Origin: a virus
Virus record (IMG/VR): IMGVR_UViG_3300040815_002027
Reading direction: 5' to 3' (one strand)
Length of the DNA: 64,000 nt
The notes beneath the pieces were generated by a model. That model had not been told where the DNA came from. It did not search any database and saw only the letters and a program-made list of their open reading frames with translations. This document shows positions 20,724 through 54,881 of this stretch, one piece after another. The translations under genes were made by a program, and so were the position numbers. Each line of letters opens with the position of its first letter. Within the stretch, counting starts at the first letter, position 1.

Positions 20724-22010
20724 ATGAACTACTATAAGATAAAAAGAAAACAAGTAAAGCGTGATGCTGAAGAATCTTATTACTACGGCACTTCTATAGT
20801 ATATAGGATGTATCCTAATAAGAAGCAGGAGGAGTGGTTAACTGAGATAGGCAACAAATGTCGGGGAGCTTATAACAAACTGGTAGAAGAGTTCTGCCAA
20901 AATCCAGATAAACCCAGGAACTTACCTGGAACTTCTTTAAAGGAGATTAATAGGCTTAGACATTATTTAAAAGAGTTTGACTGGTTAGATGATGTTCCTT
21001 CTATATTTTTGTATAATGTTTGTAATAATTTTATTAAAGGAGTTGATAACTTTTATACTCAAATTAAAAAGAATAAAAAGATATTAGAGAAAGATCCTTA
21101 TGCTACAGTTAGAAAAACAAGTCCCCCTAAAAAGAAAAAGTCTTATAGAGACCTGCATTTTGGGTCTAATAACTCAACTATAGAAAGAAGCACTGCTATT
21201 GACTATGACAACAATAGATATTATTGTTTTACGAAAACATTAAAAAGATTAGGTATTAGTGATTCTTTTAAGATAAAATGTCACAAGAAGTTTTATAATA
21301 GCAAAATAAAAAGAGTTTCTTTTATGAGGGACAGTTCTATGTGTTGGTATGTGTCTTTTGGTTTGGAGCTTCCGCAAATAGATAGGTATGATAAAATTTA
21401 TGTACCTAAAGATAATAGTTTAGGTATAGACTTGGGTGTAAAAACCGCAGCTACTACTTCTGATGGGGTAAAATTTCACCCTCCAGTAGAGCAGATAAAA
21501 AAGTTGGAGAAGAAGATAGATGTTTTAAATAAAGTTATTAGCAGGAAACAAAGATTAGATAAAAAGAATTACTGGAAGAGTAATAACTATAGTAGGGTGT
21601 TGGAGAAGAAGTACAGAATACAGAAAAAGATAAATAACATAAGAGCTAATTATAACGAGTATGTATCTCATGTTCTTACCAAAGGAGAGTATAATAAGAT
21701 TCAGATGGAAGATCTTAAGTTAAATTTTATGGTAGAAAAAAGGAAGAAGAAGTTTGGTATGAGTAGATCGGCAACTCGTTTAGGTTTGGGAAGTTTAACT
21801 AATAAGATAAAATCTAAATCTCAGGTAAGAGGTATAGAGTTTAATAAAATAAATCCTGCAAACACAACTAAGTATTGTAGTAATTGTGGACATATAGAGA
21901 ACAGTTTAACTCTTAATACAAGAGAGTGGACGTGTCCTAGATGTGGTGTTGACCACGATAGAGATATAAATGCTGCAAAAAATATTCAAAAAAGTTTGGA
22001 TATTAGATAA
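20724..22010 (+). CDS. tnpB: CRISPR-associated TnpB/Cas12f-like RNA-guided nuclease (428 aa)
   Basis: YRMYPNKKQ N-terminus; RuvC-I GIDLG, RuvC-II MEDL, Zn finger CSNCG/CPRCG, RuvC-III DRDINAAKNI; adjacent array. Confidence 0.92.
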   Translation: MNYYKIKRKQVKRDAEESYYYGTSIVYRMYPNKKQEEWLTEIGNKCRGAYNKLVEEFCQNPDKPRNLPGTSLKEINRLRHYLKEFDWLDDVPSIFLYNVCNNFIKGVDNFYTQIKKNKKILEKDPYATVRKTSPPKKKKSYRDLHFGSNNSTIERSTAIDYDNNRYYCFTKTLKRLGISDSFKIKCHKKFYNSKIKRVSFMRDSSMCWYVSFGLELPQIDRYDKIYVPKDNSLGIDLGVKTAATTSDGVKFHPPVEQIKKLEKKIDVLNKVISRKQRLDKKNYWKSNNYSRVLEKKYRIQKKINNIRANYNEYVSHVLTKGEYNKIQMEDLKLNFMVEKRKKKFGMSRSATRLGLGSLTNKIKSKSQVRGIEFNKINPANTTKYCSNCGHIENSLTLNTREWTCPRCGVDHDRDINAAKNIQKSLDIR

Positions 22011-22026
22011 AAGGTTTGTAGATTTA
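21995..22026 (+). promoter_or_regulatory. Bacteroidota-type promoter for the tracrRNA/array
   Basis: TTTG (21995) - 20 nt - TAGATTTA (22019), one mismatch to TAnnTTTG. Confidence 0.5.
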
Positions 22027-22029
22027 CGA

Positions 22030-22245
22030 TCTAAGTAAGTTCATTGAAATAATCGCCCGTGTGTAGCGGGTTTAAAGGCTTGCAGATATAGCGTCAACCC
22101 CTTCTTTGCTACGCAAGTGGTAAAGTCGCTCAAAATCTTTCTTTAAAATGAAAGCGAGAGGCCGAGAGGACGCTAGGCGGCTAATGTCGAAAGACATAAC
22201 GTGTGAGAACACACGAAATATCTTTTAAATTGTAGCCTTTGTATA
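22030..22245 (+). ncRNA. omegaRNA-derived tracrRNA-like scaffold with 3' anti-repeat
   Basis: Stems CCCG/CGGG (22056-70), TAGCGTC/GACGCTA (22089-95/22169-75), ATGTC-GAAA-GACAT (22184-97), CGTGTG/CACACG (22200-15); 22216-35 is 17/20 identical to the repeat reverse complement. Confidence 0.75.
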
Positions 22246-22250
22246 GTTAG

Positions 22251-22921
22251 GGTGTATACCACCACAATTTGAAAGGTGTTTACAACTAATGTTAGACAAA
22301 AAAATAAGTATAGCTTGGTATATAGCACCACAGTTTGAAAGGTATTTACAACGGAAACTTAGGTTACCTACTATCTGCTGAAGGTGTATACCACCACAGT
22401 TTGAAAGGTATTTACAACGAAAACTTAGGTTACCTACTATCTGCTGAAGGTGTATACCACCACATTTTGAAAGGTATTTACAACCAAATGAAGAACGATG
22501 CACAATAAGATGTAGGTGTATAGCACCACAATTTGAAAGGTGTTTACAACAGATCTAAAAGAAGAAGCAGAAAAACTTTCAGTGTATACCACCACAATTT
22601 GAAAGGTATTTACAACTAGTACCTATAGTATCAAAGTTAAATCAGAGGTGTATACCACCACAGTTTGAAAGGTATTTACAACTTATGTTATGAAGGTAGT
22701 ACTCCTTATATTGGTGTATACCACCACAATTTGAAAGGTATTTACAAACGGTGTCTCTTTAGCATCATAATTTTAAAACTGTTTACAACATAGCGACATC
22801 AATGTCGTTACCATAGATGGCTGTATACCACCACAATTTTAAAACTGTTTACAACATAGCGACATCAATGTCGTTACCATAGATGGCTGTATACCACCAC
22901 AATTTTAAAACTGTTTACAAC
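22251..22921 (+). CRISPR. CRISPR array: 11 repeats of 36 bp (consensus GGTGTATACCACCACAATTTGAAAGGTATTTACAAC), nine 30-bp spacers
   Basis: Repeats start at 22251, 22317, 22383, 22449, 22515, 22581, 22647, 22713, 22754 (degenerate), 22820, 22886; 66-bp period except a 5-bp gap at 22749-53. Confidence 0.96.
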
Positions 22922-37212: not shown

Positions 37213-40200
37213 ATGATGAAAAAGATCAGGGTAACAAATGAAGAACTATTCTACGGTAAGAATGTAGAAGTATTTACTGAGAACTTAAATGTAGGTACTA
37301 TTAGAGGTAGGTTTATTGGTACTGGACATTTACGCATTGTATGGGATGGGGACTCTATGGTAAGTTCTGGTGAGTTTGGGAGGGATGATTTTGAGGAGGA
37401 CTTTGGGTTTGTGTTTGAGGTGGAGAAAAATCCTAAAGAGGAGCAGTACTTTATACTGAGGGATATCCAGAGGTCTGGGTATAATGTAGTAACGTGTGGA
37501 GATTGTGGCACGGTTAATCTTGTTAGGTTTTCTGATGGAGACTTTTACAAGTGCCATAAATGTGGGTTTGATGATGACAGTAGTTCTTTTCCAGATTTAT
37601 TTTATTAATTAATTTAAAACTTAAATATTATGACAAAGACAAAGATGTGTTCATTGGTAAAGTTAAACAACCTTATCTACAACTTTACCAAAGTTATTCC
37701 TTCCCTAAAGGAGCAGTACCTTCACTTTCATTATGATATATCTACGGATACAATATCTCTATTAGAGATTAATGGTGGAAAGCCTATGGAGGGAGATGAT
37801 ATGTCTATAAGGTTTTCTGAGGAGGGTGATTTGTATGAGATTACTGTAACTGGGGATAAGTCCTTTTGTAATACGGTAGGTGATGTATTAAATCATATAG
37901 AGAATTGGTTTGCATAATAACTTGTTTTATATCTGGAATTGGTGATGAACCTCTCCCCAACTTTTGGTGGAGGGGTTTTTTTATGCTTATAAGGATCTAC
38001 CTTATATCTATTTGTTTTGCGTGTTTGCCCAACCAGGGAAGGTCTGGCCTGGTTAGTTTACTTTGAAGTTATTATAGAGCTGGTTAGTTTACTATAAACT
38101 TATTATATGTAGATCTACTTTAAAGTTATTTTTTTTGAAAAAAGTTGGGGTGAGGTATTGCGTAATTAAAAACTTACCTATATATTTGCAACATCATTAA
38201 TCATTAAAACAAAAAATTATGAAAGCTTTTGTAGTATTAATCCTAGTTGAAGGTTCATTAGTAGAGCCAAGAAAGACTTGTGAATTCCTTGAAGGAACTA
38301 AATTTGATATCGGAGGTTCAGTTCAAGCCACATCTACTGACGTATTGAACAAGGTTCTGTTTGAATTAGGTCTAAATGATTCTGATGGCATAGGAGTGCT
38401 TTCAATTTCAGACTTTATGGACAGGTTTAATGACCAAGAATTAAACCCAGATGACTACTTTATGTCTTATGTGTATGCTTAGTATTGTGTAATTAAAAAC
38501 TTTCCCCTATATTTGCAATCATTAATTAACTTTAAACTAAACAATATGGAAAACTTACAAATGATAAATATGTTAGACTTTCTGTTTGATATGTTAGAGC
38601 ATTACCCAGACTTCCCAAATTATTCAGAAGCAAAACAGTTATCTGTTCTTACAAAGCATATAAACTATCAAGATGGTCATACTAAATTAAATTTACAGTA
38701 TGATTATATAGGAGAAGCATCAGATGATTACTATAAAGTTATATTTGATATGAGTGATTTTGGTGAGGTATTTAAGTATGCAGATGAAGAGGTTTTATCT
38801 GAAATAAAAAGTAGTGAAGAGTTTAAGAGTAATAATAAGTATTTTATGTTTAATGGTAAAGGTATAGTATCTAATGATGATATTACTGTGTTAGGTTTTG
38901 ACTCTAAAAAGATTGCACAGTACATATTAGAAGAGTATCATAATTTTATATGTTAGCATAGTTTCGGATAGTATGTTTGAGCCTCTCCGCCAGATTTTGG
39001 TTGGAGGGGTTTTTTTATGCTTATAAGGATCTACCTTATACCTATCTGTTTTGCGTGTTTGCCCAACAGAGCTGGCTGATCTGTAAGTTTACTTTGAAGT
39101 TATTATATGTACTGGGTAGTTTACTGTAAACTTATTATATATAGGTTTAATAAAAAGTTATTTTTTTTTCAAAAAAGTTTGCGGAGAAGAAATAAAAAAC
39201 TATATTTGCAGAACATTAATCATTAAAACATAACAAACATGAACAATTACGATTTCTTTTTATTCACAAAACTAGTGGATGTAAGATTCCCCAACAATAA
39301 GGATTCTTACGATGAGTTGTACGATACCTTATCTATGGCTTATAACTCTTTTCTATCAAGTAAGTATAACGACTTTGATAAAGGAGTTTATGAGTGTATA
39401 GAAGAATACTTGGAAGATGAGGACTTACCATTCAGACAATGTACAAAGACTGGTAGTTACATTGTAGAGGGGTATATGGTCAATCACAATTTAATGTCGT
39501 ACGGAGATATCGAATACTATGCTTCAGAAGAAGATTTAGTAGAAAGATTGAAGGAAACTTATCCTGAAATTTCAGATAAGGAAGAACTACTGGCTACTGC
39601 CTATGAAGATGAGTATTACTGTTGGACACAATTTAATAATTAACTTTAAACTAAAACTATTATGGAAGATTTCAAATTAATCAATGTACTGGAACTGGCT
39701 TCTGAACTAGCAGATATGAAAGTTAGAGAAATTATGGTAAACTTTTCAGATATTTACATTGAAGATAGTGATGGAAGTACAAGGTATACTGAAGAGGCTC
39801 AAGACCTATTTAACGAGTGGTACGATTCCTACACTGAACTAATACAATCTATTTAACTTTAAACTAAAACTATTATGGACAAATTACTTAAATCTGAAAT
39901 TGACAAAGCAAAAAAACTTTTAAAAGACAATGGCTACCAAACGTATAACTTGTGGCACATTGACGATGTATTGGATGAAGAAGGGCTTTTAGAGGATGGC
40001 GATAAGATGGAGATACTGGAAGAAGCACTCACAAATGAATGGGTTATAGAACAAATTTTTTTTATTATAAACGACATTAGAGATAGGTATATTGAAGAAG
40101 TTAAAAACAAAAAAGCATGAGAAGGAAGTATTTAAATAGAGTAACAGAAAGTGATTTTATAAACTGGTACTTTAGCGATTCAGAAGACTTGACCGAATTT

Positions 40201-40368
40201 GCAAAAGGTATTATTGATGAACTGGCAGAGACTGGTAAATGTAACTTGACTGTAAAGAAAGTATTTGATAACTGTGGGTATATACCCTCACACATTTGCG
40301 AGTCTAAACTGGATGGGGAAGAATACCAACCGCACGAAGTTAGACTGGTAAAAGATATTTCTAATTAA
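37213..40368 (+). CDS. Small acidic early-type hypothetical genes (37213 with Zn ribbon, 37630, 38219, 38546, 39239, 39662, 39875, 40117)
   Basis: Each unit preceded by a TATATTTG promoter; CGDCG/CHKCG in 37213. Confidence 0.65.
39178..39208 (+). promoter_or_regulatory. Bacteroidota sigma-A promoter (near-identical copies at 40638, 41607, 42664, 43697)
   Basis: TTTG-N19-TATATTTG matches the -33/-7 consensus. Confidence 0.85.
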
Positions 40369-40702
40369 AAGTAAAAAAGTTAGGGGAGAGTGTATAATAA
40401 TTAAAAACTTTCCCCTATATTTGCAGAACATTAATTAACCATAAAAACTTAAAGTTATGAAAGTAGCAAGACCCAAGACAGAAAAATGGCATAATGACCA
40501 AGAAGGTGATTGCAGAAAACCTATTGATAGAGATGGAAGTAAAAAATCATATTATAAAAAAGGATGGTGGAAAAGATATGATAGAAAGAAGTTTTTCCGC
40601 AATATTAACAAGTGGTTTGGATAATTACCGCTAAAAGTTTGCGGAGAAGAAATAAAAAACTATATTTGCAGAACATTAATTAACAACTAAAAATTTAAAA
40701 CT

Positions 40703-41362
40703 ATGCCAAACTGGTGTTCAAATTACGTAACGATTTACGGAGAAGATTTCTCCAAAGTAAAAGATTTACTTTTAACTAAAACTGATGATGATGGTCTTTT
40801 CGAGCATACTGTAGGTATTGTAAAGGAAGGCTATTTAAGAGATGAAAAGTATAAAAATTTAGGAGAGGTTATGCTTGATAACAAATACTTTAACTGGTAC
40901 GACCACAACATAAACGAGTATGGTACAAAGTGGGATGTTAATGAGATTTCATTTGATGTTTTTGCCGACCCATCTGATGAGCATATTTCCTTTAGTTTTG
41001 AGTCCGCTTGGTCTCCTCCTTTAGAATGGGCAAGAAAACTGTCAGATAAGTTTAAAGTAATTGTGGTAATAGAGTATGCTGAAAATGGTTGTGATTTTGG
41101 AGGTAGGTCAATATTTGAGAATGGAGATGAAAAGGAATTTGCACAATACACATACCTTAACTGGATGTTAGTTGATGATACGAGTGGAACTAGGTTTATG
41201 GAGGAAATAGAGTACATAACATCTCATATGGACAAAGATGAGTTTGAAGAGTATAAGCAGGATATTATAGAGTCTGCTGAAGAACAGTTAGACTCTACTT
41301 TTGTAAAGACTGTTGTGGATGTATTTGATGAAATAGAAAAGAGTATGTTTGAAGAATCTTAA
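40703..41362 (+). CDS. DUF1281/YubB ferredoxin-like domain protein
   Basis: MPNWCSN; WYD..I..YGTKWD; FESAWSPP; Y.E.G.DF.G. Confidence 0.8.
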   Translation: MPNWCSNYVTIYGEDFSKVKDLLLTKTDDDGLFEHTVGIVKEGYLRDEKYKNLGEVMLDNKYFNWYDHNINEYGTKWDVNEISFDVFADPSDEHISFSFESAWSPPLEWARKLSDKFKVIVVIEYAENGCDFGGRSIFENGDEKEFAQYTYLNWMLVDDTSGTRFMEEIEYITSHMDKDEFEEYKQDIIESAEEQLDSTFVKTVVDVFDEIEKSMFEES

Positions 41363-41670
41363 TAGTAATAGGTTATGTTTTAGAGTGCCTCTCCCCCGCT
41401 TTTGGAGGAGGGGTTTTTTTGTGCTTATAAGGATGATCCGATATACCTACTAGTTTGCGTGTTGTGTGAACTGGTTGAACGTATTTGTAAGTTTATTTTA
41501 AAGTTATTGTACATACTATATGTTTACTTTTAAGTTATTATATGTATTATATGTTTACTGTAAAGTTATTCTGTTTACTTTTAATTTATTTTTTTTTGTA
41601 GAAAAGTTTGCGGAGAAGAAACAAAAAACTATATTTGCAGAACATTAATCAACATTAAAAACTTAAAGTT

Positions 41671-42391
41671 ATGGAAACTTACAAAAAGATTGGTAATTAC
41701 ACATTCAAGTTAACATCAAAATACAATATTGGTGATGAAATTTTTTATCAGAATATGAAATGGAGTTATAAAGATGAGAAAAATATCATTACAAAAGAAA
41801 AGGCAAAAATAGTTGATATGTATGATTATGGTAATAAAAATTGGGGAACACTAAATGTTAGAGTTATACCTGAAAGAAAAGAATTGTGGGATAAGGATGG
41901 TGGTAGGTGGATTAGTGAAAATGATATTATTTCAAAGGTGGGTGGGTAAAAATTATTGCACATAACTATTTGTTAACCCAAGTTTAAACTTAATACCAAT
42001 GAAACTAACATTCAGTATTTTAATTATCTTTATATCTTTAACTGTACATTCACAGTCCAGAAGATTCACTTTAGATAAAAGTAATTTAGCAACAGTACAA
42101 AGTAACAATATTAATCAACCAACAAAACAATCTACTATGAAGTTATTCATCGCAATCGAAGAAGGAAGGAACCTACGTTCCAGATTCATTACAAGCTTGG
42201 AAATTATTGCTAGAAATGAAATTGAAGCTAGAAAAATTATCAGAGAGTATAATCGTTATGTATTTGATAATAAGTTAAAAGTAAAAGAATTGAACAGACC
42301 TATCATTTGTGAAGTAACTATGACTGGTGCATTTGAACACCATAAGAACTCTACTAGAGGGTTTTATAACCCTACTACAGAAGTACAGTAA
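41671..42391 (+). CDS. Two hypothetical genes (41671..41949, 41999..42391)
   Basis: First ends at a cassette boundary site at 41963. Confidence 0.55.
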
Positions 42392-42512
42392 AGATATATT
42401 CACTCACTCTGTATAAAGGTGCTACATTAATTTGTAGTGCCTTTTTTTATGCTTATAAGGATGATCCTTTATACCTATTAGTTTGCGTGTTTGATGAAGT
42501 GACCAGTCAGTA

Positions 42513-42636
42513 TATATGTTTATTGTAAAGTTATTCTGTATACTATATGTTTACTTTTAAGTTATTCTGTATACTATATGTTTACTTTTAAGTTATTCTG
42601 TATACTATATGTTTACTTTTAAGTTATTCTGTATAC
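42513..42636 (+). repeat. Four tandem 31-bp repeats TATATGTTTACTTTTAAGTTATTCTGTATAC
   Basis: Copies at 42513, 42544, 42575, 42606; related arrays near 38055, 39085, 41490, 43570, 44450. Confidence 0.9.
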
Positions 42637-42725
42637 TTTTAAGTTATTTTTTTTGCAGAAAAGTTTGCGGTGATGAAATAAAAAACTATATTTGCAGAAC
42701 ATTAATCATTCTAAAACAACACAAT

Positions 42726-43448
42726 ATGAAAAGTTTAACGTTTTTATCAGCCAATCAAAAAGTTGTAAATGTCATTGCATTAAATAAAACTAAAAATGGC
42801 AAAATAACTACACCGAATAAATTAATACTACAAACCTATCACTTTGATATTGAGCAAATAAATTTTGCCAAACAAGGTGGTAAAGGTATTAATTTAGATA
42901 CTGGATTTCTTAATCCTAAATTAACTGAAAATAATTGTTTGAGCTGTCCTTTAAGATTTGGCGGTTGTTATACACATCACGGTATCCAGCCTGTAGGCCA
43001 TTTATCTATGTTACGTAGATTGGCTAAATTAGATAAAATACCTCAATATTCTGTTGATACCATTAACCAATCTTTAGCAATGTTACAATTAACTACAAAT
43101 AAATACATTAGGTTTGGCAGTTATGGGTGTCCAACAAATTTACCCTTTAATTTGGTACAATTATTAGCCGAAAATGCTAATAACTATACGGGATATACGC
43201 ATGAATGGCACAATCCTAAAAACTACAAATATATGGCTTATTTTATGGCTTCTACTCACCAAAGTGACCCTATATTCAGTAGCAAATTAGCCAATGATTT
43301 GGGTTTTAGAACATTTGAGATAGACGGAAAAGTTAATACCGTCCAATGTCCACATTCAACCAACAAAGATATTAAATGTGACAAATGTGGTTTATGTAGC
43401 GGATATAAAGGTAAAGGAAAAACAAATATAGGTATCCCAAAACACTAG
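42726..43448 (+). CDS. Cys-rich phage protein (gp88-like, possible Fe-S)
   Basis: CLSCPL..GCY, IRFGSYG.P, TGYTHEW, FMAST, CP...CDKCGLC. Confidence 0.6.
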   Translation: MKSLTFLSANQKVVNVIALNKTKNGKITTPNKLILQTYHFDIEQINFAKQGGKGINLDTGFLNPKLTENNCLSCPLRFGGCYTHHGIQPVGHLSMLRRLAKLDKIPQYSVDTINQSLAMLQLTTNKYIRFGSYGCPTNLPFNLVQLLAENANNYTGYTHEWHNPKNYKYMAYFMASTHQSDPIFSSKLANDLGFRTFEIDGKVNTVQCPHSTNKDIKCDKCGLCSGYKGKGKTNIGIPKH

Positions 43449-45075
43449 GTTTAGATTGATTAATTAGTTTAACGGCCTGGCAATAAGTTAGGCCGTTTTT
43501 TTTATGCTTATAAGGATGATCCTTTATACCTATTTATTTGCGTGTTTGATTAATTACTAATTAGTGTTTATGTTTACTTTTAAGTTATTATACACACTAT
43601 ATGTTTATTGTAAAGTTATTCTATATAGTATATGTTTACTTTTAAGTTATTCTATATAGTATATGTTTACTTTTAAGTTATTTTTTTCTAGAAAATTTTG
43701 CGGTGATGAAATAAAAAACTATATTTGCAAAAGATTAATTAACAATTAAAACTTATTAAAATGAGGAATTTAAAATTGCACGAAATTATTGAAAGGTCTG
43801 AATCGCTTGTGGAAATTAGCTATAAAGACGTTGCACCAAAAGTAAAACAATTAAAAACTTACTACGGTACTAAAGTTTTCTTTTTGGCTACATTTGTTAG
43901 CAATGCTATTCAAGGTGGTATTGTTGTCCCAATAGATTATATAAATGAAGCAATAGATGAAATAGCACTACTACATTCAGAAGATAATGAGGAATTTGAA
44001 TATTTAAAAGAATTATACAGTCACCAAACAGTATTATTATAATTAATTAACAATTAAAACTTATTATTATGCCGTACTCAATTGAAGATACTATGGAAAT
44101 TTACCTGTTAAATAATGAAACAGGCGAAGAATGTACTTTTAAAGTAGATTTCAACTATTACTATGACGAAGGTAGATATCACAGTGCGTGGGAAGATAGT
44201 TATCCTGCTGAAGAATGTCTGGAAGTTACATGGGTTGAAAATGAAGAAAATTTGCCCGACTGGGTAACTGAGGAAATGATATATAATGAGGTGGAAAATA
44301 ACTTACACTGTTATTAATATCATAGAAAAATAGTGTTAAAATAGGGTAACATTAATTTGTTATCCTATTTTTTTTCTTATAAGGAAGACCTAATATGCGT
44401 ACTTGTTTGCGTGTTTGACCAATTGACTGGTTGACTGGATCTATTTTTATATGTTTACTTTAAAGTTATTCTGTATACTATATGTTTACTTTAAAGTTAT
44501 TCTGTATACTATATGTTTACTTTTAACTTATTATTACTATCAAAATAACTTTTTAGTAAAAAAAATTAACTTGATATTGAAATAAAAACTATCTTTGTAT
44601 CGTATTAATTAATAACTAAAACAACACAACATGGAATTTTTAAAAGAATTCGAATTGCAAGGATTTACTTACCACCTAGTTTTACACTGCGAAAAAACAT
44701 ACTTTTTTTTCGCTGGACTATTTTTTGAGGCTAACGGTTTTGAGTCTCAAATAACCGTTGAAAATTACATTTTATCATTATTAAATTAATTAACTATGCT
44801 AAACTTAATCAAGCTCGTATTTTTGGTTTTAATTGGTATTGCATTATTGTATATTGATGCGGTTATAAAAATACCACAATTAAAACTTATTGCATCATTT
44901 CCTTTTATGACAGTGGGAATATATCTAATTATCCTATTCCTTTTCCCTAAATTGGAAAAGCGGATAATTGGCTAACTTTTTTTTAATTGGGTGAAAATTT
45001 TTTCATCCAATTATTCTTTATTTCAAATTTATTTATATCTTTGCTATCATTTTAAACTTTAAAAATTTTCAAAAC

Positions 45076-54266: not shown

Positions 54267-54881
54267 ATGAAAAAACACATATTACAATTTTTTAAATTTT
54301 TAAAAGATAAGGAAGGTAAATCAGCTCCCTTAAAACTCAAGCTCTTAGACCCACAAACTTTTGGTAAACCCACAAAAAATCAGTTAAATGTAAAAGGTGA
54401 CTTAAATTTAAGTAAGACAAATATAAAGGAACTACCTCAAGGACTACAGGTGAGTGGGGATTTAGATTTAAGCGGTTGCACATCTCTTACAAAACTTCTA
54501 CAAGGACTACAGGTGGGTGGGAGTTTAGATTTACAAGGCTGTACTTCTCTAAAAGAACTACCTCAAGACCTTAAGGTGGGTGACGGTATAAATTTAATGG
54601 ATTGCACATCTCTTAAAGAATTACCACAAGACCTTTATGTGGGTGAAGATTTAGATTTAGAAGGTTGCACATCGCTTAAAGAACTCCCACAAGGACTACA
54701 GGTGGGTTGGAGTTTAAATTTAATGGATTGCACATCTTTAAAAGAACTTCCACAAGGTCTTAAGGTGATTGATAATTTATGGTTAGTAAACACACCTATA
54801 GCAGATAAATACTCAAAAGAAGAGATAAAAAAGATGATAGAAGATGGGGGAGGATTTGTTGAAGGTGAAATTAATGTATAA
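54267..54881 (+). CDS. LRR protein, 22-aa repeats
   Basis: (GCTSLKELPQGLQVGxxLxL)n, 66-bp DNA period. Confidence 0.85.
   Translation: MKKHILQFFKFLKDKEGKSAPLKLKLLDPQTFGKPTKNQLNVKGDLNLSKTNIKELPQGLQVSGDLDLSGCTSLTKLLQGLQVGGSLDLQGCTSLKELPQDLKVGDGINLMDCTSLKELPQDLYVGEDLDLEGCTSLKELPQGLQVGWSLNLMDCTSLKELPQGLKVIDNLWLVNTPIADKYSKEEIKKMIEDGGGFVEGEINV

Follow-up and report, generated by a model that had tools for sequence, protein, structure and literature searches.

A phage TnpB-family nuclease gene followed by a CRISPR array of a Bacteroidota repeat superfamily points to guide arrays shared among unrelated effectors

Results

A TnpB-family nuclease gene lies directly upstream of the array

The window analysed in this work is a stretch of 64,000 nucleotides from the IMG/VR virus record IMGVR_UViG_3300040815_002027, which has 85.5 kb in total and is about 47% complete according to CheckV. 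The region of interest contains the following elements:

20724-22010, plus strand: P0001, gene for a 428-aa TnpB-family RNA-guided nuclease (profile matches, RuvC residues)
22011-22250, plus strand: predicted scaffold region, omegaRNA/tracrRNA-like (GC content, fold)
22216-22233, plus strand: predicted anti-repeat (18 contiguous pairs with repeat positions 14-31)
22251-22748, plus strand: main CRISPR array (eight 36-nt repeats, seven 30-nt spacers)
22749-22921, plus strand: variant mini-array, a degenerate repeat and then two variant repeats with two identical spacers
about 22750-22789, plus strand: degenerate repeat, start of the variant mini-array
22820-22855 and 22886-22921, plus strand: two copies of one variant repeat
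22790-22819 and 22856-22885, plus strand: mini-array spacers, 30 nt each, identical

The protein encoded by P0001 was assigned to the NCBIfam guided_TnpB family (NF040570, E 3.5e-57) and also matched the Pfam entries Cas12f1-like_TNB, OrfB_IS605 and HTH_OrfB. Its best relatives of solved structure were an AI-designed TnpB-like nuclease (9yyg, 1.7e-23) and the ISDra2 TnpB (8h1j/8bf8, about 7e-23), with LaTranC at 5e-15 and Cas12f proteins at 1e-10 to 1e-13. The RuvC triad (D236, E329 and D412) aligned with the catalytic motifs and is conserved in the clade of P0001 described below, as are the four cysteines of a CxxC..CxxC zinc finger, and the motif HDRDINAA corresponds to the DRDxN motif of the 'typical' TnpBs. 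The gene is present in a single copy and has the GC content of the phage (31%). Two other assignments were considered and rejected: a mobile IS200/IS605 element, as TnpB is single copy and no Y1 transposase was detected in the 85.5-kb record, and the Cas12 'hacker' family (Cas12p), whose members have 500-700 aa and a thioredoxin-binding domain.

From the end of P0001 to the first repeat there are 240 nt, and both gene and array are on the same strand, so a TnpB with an intact RuvC domain is placed directly upstream of the array and in its orientation, as in TranC and type V-U systems. P0001 is most likely the effector served by this array. Elsewhere in the window, in which no tRNAs were found, a 63-nt (or 126-nt) tandem repeat of about 5 copies with 73-76% identity, probably a coding repeat, is located at 54424-54757, and a 31-nt tandem motif, TATGTTTACTTT(T/A)AAGTTATTC..., is found at no fewer than five intergenic places within 38049-44532.

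The main array and a variant mini-array

The eight repeats of the main array start at 22251, 22317, 22383, 22449, 22515, 22581, 22647 and 22713, with a period of exactly 66 nt and TRF scores of 236-309. The array thus shows what is expected of CRISPR arrays in general, with more than three near-identical repeats separated by unrelated spacers of near-constant length. The 36+30 units had been described as invariant in the original prediction; this holds exactly for their geometry, but the repeat sequence varies at positions 4, 9, 17 and 28, and these polymorphisms are spread over the array, not restricted to its far end. The complementary termini that had been noticed are present (5' GGTGTA vs. 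3' TACAAC, five of the six positions pairing), the 5' end of the repeat being GGTG compared to GTTG in type VI-B repeats. The 3' half that had been reported, TTTGAAAGGTATTTACAAC, is also there, but is exact in only 5 of the 8 copies, since position 28 is G in R1 and R5 and the last bases of R8 are ACAAA. Regarding the spacers, numbers 2 and 3 differ by a single nucleotide.

The range first given, 22251-22748, contains the main array but ends too early, since array material continues to 22921. In this variant mini-array the core of the repeat is TTTTAAAACTG, at the place where the main repeat has TTTGAAAGGTA. Repeat 8 abuts the degenerate repeat without any spacer between them, and this junction looks like a recombination scar joining two arrays.

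A predicted scaffold RNA pairs with the core of the repeat

The region between P0001 and the first repeat has a GC content of 41%, vs. 31% for the genome. Folding of 22031-22286 produced several stem-loops followed by a terminal helix of 18 bp between the anti-repeat and the repeat (z = -2.9), which leaves ACAAC unpaired ahead of the spacer. The energies calculated with RNAduplex for scaffold vs. repeat were not distinct from those of shuffled sequences, the sequences being AT-rich, so a contiguous-helix test with 2000 shuffles was used in their place. The 18 contiguous pairs were reached by none of the 2000 shuffles, the maximum among them being 15. The helix is possible only in RNA from the plus strand and is kept in seven of the eight main repeats, and the A/G polymorphisms at positions 17 and 28 of the repeat both face U in it. 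Against the variant repeats, the same anti-repeat formed at most 7 contiguous pairs, and no second anti-repeat suited to the mini-array was seen.

A scaffold RNA with an anti-repeat pairing to the repeat, as found in TranC and type V-U systems, is therefore present here as a predicted RNA fold, and the layout of scaffold and array in the window would be the guide architecture described for compact type V/TranC systems (bioRxiv 10.64898/2026.03.27.714800). As the anti-repeat is predicted to pair with the repeat core and to free ACAAC and the spacer, the first unit would be a natural single guide, and the later units could pair in trans with the same scaffold. A search against Rfam, including the CRISPR-DR families for the repeats, revealed no matching family, with chance-level matches only.

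The repeat belongs to a superfamily that includes type II-C and VI-B arrays

The array geometry had been predicted to be borrowed from type VI-B/II-C systems of Bacteroidota. In order to search for related repeats, a 16-base core motif, TTTGAAAGGTANNNACAAC, was scanned across one genome per prokaryote species. Multi-copy matches came nearly all from Bacteroidota, with a few in Chlorobiota and Ignavibacteria. Uniform arrays of 36-nt repeats with a period of 65-66 nt were found adjoining Cas13b (NF038190, up to 808 bits), among them those of Segatella buccae ATCC 33574 (L203:2195-3283) and Flavobacterium jejuense (L193). The Cas13b-adjacent repeats have 36 nt with the form GTTG..TTTGAAAGGTA...ACAAC and spacers of 30 nt, so the Cas13b format given in the original prediction is correct, also for these two species. 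Heterogeneous and discontinuous arrays in Sphingobacteriaceae adjoined a gene for a 368-aa TnpB-like protein together with an ECF sigma factor, and correspond to the dCas12f-sigmaE systems reported in PMC13472631, a paper that mentions one Sphingobacterium locus whose CRISPR arrays resemble the guide scaffold.

The type II-C array of F. jejuense was located through cas1, independently of the motif and on a contig separate from that of the VI-B array. In this locus (L361:8853 onward), cas9, cas1 and cas2 precede an array in which a 46-nt repeat occurs 42 times, with spacers of 30 nt, and this repeat aligns end to end with the 36-nt repeats except for one 10-nt insert. Most II-C repeats of Bacteroidota have about 46-47 nt. 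In a second Flavobacteriaceae II-C locus (L385, minus strand), the repeat that follows cas9-cas1-cas2 has 36 nt, its spacers have 30 nt, and 24 of the 36 repeat positions are identical to those of the window repeat. In a third genome (G397), no array was found within 7 kb of Cas1.

The modal spacer length was 30 in all four kinds of array, and the GTTG end was directed toward the effector or leader side in every kind compared. When the window repeat was aligned globally with each member of the superfamily, the score was above those of all 2000 shuffles, with z values of 5.9-7.7 for VI-B repeats, 6.0 for the motif-independent II-C repeat and 7.6-12.8 for type V-linked repeats. As the motif used to collect most of the comparison repeats came from the window repeat itself, similarity is inflated at 16 positions; to counter this bias, the other 20 positions were scored and the motif-independent II-C array was included. 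These data show a superfamily of arrays throughout Bacteroidota, with 36-nt repeats of the form GTTGT ... TTTGAAAG ... ACAAC and 30-nt spacers, which spans Cas9 II-C, Cas13b VI-B and no fewer than two additional TnpB/Cas12f-like lineages, represented by their arrays or guide scaffolds. The likeness of the window repeat to VI-B and II-C repeats is thus real and reflects relatedness.

Part of this pattern had been described before. The II-C and VI-B repeats have a GTTGT end in common, and the VI-B array of F. columnare gains spacers via the II-C Cas1, which agrees with the in-trans acquisition first stated for Flavobacterium VI-B arrays; such trans-acquisition was shown only where both repeats have 36 nt (PMC8092290).

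When the scan was restricted to 401 Flavobacteriaceae genomes (up to 3 mismatches at 25 positions), five genomes gave matches, none of them close to the window repeat, and the window repeat, used as an exact pattern, had no match in IMG/VR. As a separate observation, about a dozen IMG/VR contigs (L297-L299, L309, L318, L326, L337, L343, L344, L348, L351 and L358) carry a large Cas13b-like gene (about 22% identity over about 600 aa, weak but consistent) adjoining uniform 36-nt-repeat arrays of the same superfamily. The genes may be Cas13b variants carried by phages or prophages, or the contigs may be host DNA that was binned as viral. On another IMG/VR contig, of 66 kb, an array of 37-nt repeats (L052:880-1150) comes after the gene of a further phage TnpB relative, with 31% identity in the C-terminal half; the repeat of this array is unrelated, and therefore unions of phage TnpB and arrays are not limited to the Bacteroidota repeat family.

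The window repeat falls in the type V effector-linked branch

The mean identity to the window consensus over the 20 positions free of the motif was 11.6 for TnpB-linked viral repeats and 11.4 for Cas12f-like viral repeats, compared to 9.3 for dCas12f-sigmaE repeats and about 8 for Cas13b-linked ones. The best dCas12f-sigmaE copy, from Parapedobacter deserti (L204), reached 15 of the 20 free positions and 31 of 36 overall. There was no Cas13b-linked repeat among the 20 nearest to that of the window. The segment that discriminates both groups corresponds to positions 10-17, with A(T/C)CACAA in type V-linked repeats vs. GCC(T/C)TT in VI-B repeats, and the window repeat has CACCACAA at these positions. 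In all four VI-B repeats that were folded, this segment pairs with AAAGG to form an inner hairpin, whereas in the fold of the window repeat the GCCUUU/AAAGGU inner hairpin inside the terminal GUUG/CAAC stem is absent.

These data place the window repeat in the type V effector-linked branch. The VI-B/II-C character first proposed therefore stands as regards the geometry, the GTTGT/ACAAC ends, the TTTGAAAG core and the polarity, but Cas13b repeats are not the nearest relatives. Clustering with known type V repeats had been named in the original prediction as an observation that would count against it, and this was found in part, all the nearest repeats being TnpB- or Cas12f-like-linked. Loading of the window crRNAs into a host Cas13b, which had been put forward as well, is unlikely on the predicted folds because the VI-B hairpin is absent and the core would pair with the anti-repeat instead. 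No match to the Cas13b profile NF038190 was detected in the 85.5-kb record (about 47% complete).

A solitary repeat followed by a 29-nt spacer and a partial repeat was found on the minus strand of a 26-kb IMG/VR contig (L338:360-440). It ties for the highest identity to the window repeat (15 of the 20 free positions), and no TnpB, Cas12f or Cas13b gene was detected in the 5.4 kb of this contig that were examined.

The association of nuclease and array is shared by the clade

Besides the window, P0001 is encoded on six other contigs, the longest of the seven having 158 kb, and its closest relatives have 95%, 76% and 59% identity. Among 1.8 billion library representatives, just two matches to P0001 were below 1e-99, the remaining ones being ordinary TnpBs with about 30-36% identity, and a close-relative protein scan of IMG/VR with P0001 gave no match. 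Two more distant relatives were informative: L009 (42% identity), present on four phage contigs of 97-309 kb, and L089 (29% identity), from a lake metagenome. In a FastTree phylogeny of 168 TnpB-like proteins, P0001, L009 and L089 formed one clade with a support of 96, and the Cas12f-like and dCas12f proteins, as well as an array-bearing phage TnpB (L306), were placed elsewhere, among TnpBs without arrays.

The order gene-scaffold-array was found in all three clade members with a readable context (the window, L009 and L089), and their arrays have 36-nt repeats of the same family with spacers of 29-31 nt. The L009-type array is identical on its four contigs. In both L089 and L009, a repeat-like 3' end closes the scaffold and the guide comes directly after it. 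The motif was not found downstream of the gene in three neighbouring TnpBs without arrays.

As the same array family accompanies all readable members of the clade, the association appears to be old and inherited. The capture of the array by this particular TnpB, as originally proposed, does not agree with the presence of the same array family in all three of them, down to 29% identity; the array format was probably inherited within the clade and not recently borrowed by the window phage. According to the same tree, the format would have joined TnpB-derived lineages at least three times, a count of independent associations which is approximate because several branches of the tree are long.

Adaptation genes and spacer turnover

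No cas1, cas2 or cas4 gene was detected in the 85.5-kb record, i.e., in about 47% of the phage genome. Adaptation genes of the phage's own had been named in advance as an argument against host-supplied spacers, and over this part of the genome there are none. Cas1 was likewise absent from five other phage records with arrays of the superfamily, including a complete genome of 362.6 kb, and from the Sphingobacteriaceae chromosomes with the most similar repeats. The complete genome just mentioned (record G408, with L325 and L356) is a jumbo phage of 362,603 bp with direct terminal repeats and 100% completeness, and carries a Cas12f-like gene, at least 16 repeats of the superfamily and unique spacers of about 30 nt, with no Cas1 genome-wide.

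Unrelated spacers of exactly 30 nt imply the action of a Cas1-Cas2 ruler at some time. The II-C arrays were the only ones of the superfamily found adjoining cas1-cas2, and as II-C modules are the only cas1-cas2 modules found with this repeat family, the idea of acquisition in trans is reasonable and a supply of spacers by a host II-C integrase is plausible. On the other hand, the ongoing updating by host Cas1-Cas2 that had been proposed is not visible: units are duplicated, repeats are polymorphic and a related array is identical on four contigs. Unit duplication together with repeat polymorphism suggests that the array is largely static.

Spacer targets and host

The seven spacers of the main array had no match within 9 mismatches in the rest of the phage record, and no convincing match among 50,697 cultured phages. 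Spacer 5 (22551-22580) matched, at 30 of 33 bases, a hypothetical gene found in Bacteroides phage DAC16 (178 kb) and in its relatives (E 0.02), but this spacer is purine-rich and the match may be due to chance. Scans of IMG/VR with the core of spacers 2/3 and with the spacer of the variant mini-array gave no match for either. In the opposite direction, none of 689 spacers from the host and phage arrays that were fetched matched the window phage, so that no spacer-based link to a host was obtained. The host is likely a member of the Bacteroidota, as judged from matches of the phage proteins to those of Prevotella, Maribacter and Flavobacterium phages.

Discussion

The locus resembles the TranC/V-U systems (PMC10691335; LaTranC, 9jfo/9jfq) in having a nuclease of TnpB size with an intact RuvC domain (DRDxN) and the array downstream, in its scaffold of several stem-loops with an anti-repeat:repeat helix and a few unpaired bases before the guide, in the absence of cas1/cas2 and in being phage-borne. 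This likeness is one of architecture; P0001 is nearer to ISDra2 TnpB than to LaTranC, and the repeats reported for CauTranC9 have 38 bp vs. 36 bp in the window. With the VI-B systems it has in common the 36-nt repeat, the 30-nt spacers, ends of the GTTG/ACAAC type, the TTTGAAAGGTA...ACAAC 3' half, an array placed after the effector gene and oriented like it, and the lack of adjacent cas1/cas2, but the repeats are identical at only 21-25 of 36 positions, the inner hairpin is missing and the phage record has no cas13b. The II-C arrays of Flavobacteriaceae are similar in the GTTG...ACAATTT(T)GAAAG...CACAAC core, the 30-nt spacers and a leader on the GTTG side, and that of L385 has the same 36+30 geometry, whereas in the window there is no cas9, cas1 or cas2 and TnpB is the only large neighbouring gene. 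The most similar repeats found (up to 31/36) are those of the dCas12f-sigmaE systems (PMC13472631), which are also heterogeneous, belong to genomes without Cas1 and serve an effector of TnpB/Cas12f descent. Membership in this last group, defined by a nuclease-dead, C-terminally truncated protein in an operon with an ECF sigma factor, was nevertheless rejected, as P0001 keeps the RuvC triad and the zinc finger and has no sigma factor or HTH neighbour among the ORFs; a tblastn search with P0001 against dCas12f proteins detected no similarity at E 1e-3.

We consider it probable that this array supplies the guides for the TnpB-derived nuclease encoded by the phage itself, and that the locus represents a transposon-to-CRISPR intermediate of the TranC/type V-U kind. 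The array format would have entered the nuclease lineage from the pool of host II-C/VI-B arrays, at or before the root of the clade, a direction from host arrays to TnpB lineages suggested by where cas1-cas2 are located. The unique spacers of exactly 30 nt would have been made by a Cas1-Cas2 integrase of II-C type, either in trans or before the capture, and the present array would change mostly via point mutation and duplication of units. The probable targets are rival phages or other mobile elements.

A more recent capture was also weighed, in which the phage TnpB took a host VI-B/II-C array to which host Cas1-Cas2 regularly adds spacers, the crRNAs loading Cas13b. The 36+30 geometry and the repeat ends match VI-B/II-C arrays, the record has no adaptation genes, F. 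columnare VI-B arrays do gain spacers via II-C Cas1 (PMC8092290) and the exact 30-nt length of six different spacers implies an integrase ruler. This scenario nonetheless seems unlikely to us: the array family is ancestral to the nuclease clade, the nearest repeats are linked to type V and not to Cas13b, the VI-B inner hairpin is absent and the core of the repeat is tied to the phage anti-repeat. The record of turnover is also against it, with scattered polymorphisms instead of identical repeats at the leader end, duplicated units (S2/S3 and both spacers of the variant array), a related array identical on four contigs and no Cas1 in the Sphingobacteriaceae genomes with the most similar repeats. 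If, on the contrary, the repeats had arisen by serial duplication of the 3' end of the TnpB omegaRNA, their likeness to II-C/VI-B repeats would be convergent or accidental. Duplication of omegaRNA segments is seen as a likely general origin of type V arrays (PMC10691335), the scaffolds of L089 and L009 do run into a repeat-like 3' end and guide, and unit duplication is apparent in the window array. But the similarity to VI-B/II-C repeats exceeds all 2000 shuffles (z 5.9-7.7), the motif-independent II-C repeat included, and extends to repeat length, 30-nt spacer mode and polarity; three or more distinct TnpB/Cas12f lineages carry the repeat family, the motif is missing in the neighbours without arrays, and duplication cannot yield unrelated spacers of exactly 30 nt. 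An origin de novo is thus even more doubtful than a recent capture, although it would be favoured if the omegaRNA 3' ends of array-less sister TnpBs were found to carry the TTTGAAAGG...ACAAC motif.

Finally, the array could be independent of TnpB and act as a hijack or decoy, feeding guides to the Cas13b or Cas9 of the host or soaking them up. The phage contig with solitary units of the repeat family and no effector nearby (L338) fits this possibility, to which we nevertheless give very little credit: the order effector-scaffold-array is conserved across the clade, a strand-specific anti-repeat of 18 bp lies immediately upstream, the repeat lacks the Cas13b hairpin and Cas9 II-C crRNAs are read from the strand opposite to the window motif (PMC8092290).

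The general object, a phage TnpB with split guide and array, is already published: typical-clade TnpBs with CRISPR arrays and no adaptation module were described in PMC10691335, and TranC intermediates, including the phage-borne CauTranC9 of roughly 414 aa, in bioRxiv 10.64898/2026.03.27.714800. In the literature covered, which did not include the Cell 2025 TranC paper, there was no statement that TnpB/Cas12f-linked arrays of Bacteroidota and of their phages share the repeat family of II-C and VI-B. The present analysis adds a comparison with a motif-independent II-C array, sets a type V-linked branch apart from that of VI-B, ties the core of the repeat to the anti-repeat and provides evidence that the association is as old as the clade. 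The origin of TnpB arrays had been left between duplication of omegaRNA segments and insertion beside an existing array (PMC10691335); several distantly related TnpB/Cas12f lineages, both phage-borne and chromosomal, carrying the repeat family, spacer length and polarity of II-C/VI-B arrays are what array capture predicts.

Beyond the guide array of a phage nuclease favoured above, these results point to guide arrays shared among unrelated effectors. In its widest form, which we put forward tentatively and with less confidence than the reading favoured for the window, a single Bacteroidota array format (30-nt spacers, GTTGT..TTTGAAAG..ACAAC) built by II-C Cas1-Cas2 would be a communal guide supply into which unrelated effectors have plugged repeatedly, namely Cas9, Cas13b, Cas12f/dCas12f and at least two phage TnpB lineages, the phage TnpB arrays still being extended in trans by the host integrase during infection. 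If this were true, phages would arm themselves with the host's own adaptation machinery, and the transitions from TnpB to Cas12 could start by array capture and not only by duplication of the omegaRNA. A single host (F. columnare or a relative) with a phage array on a plasmid would suffice to put the question of array capture to the test, and the case of the window suggests a route by which phage CRISPR systems devoid of cas1 may obtain their spacers.
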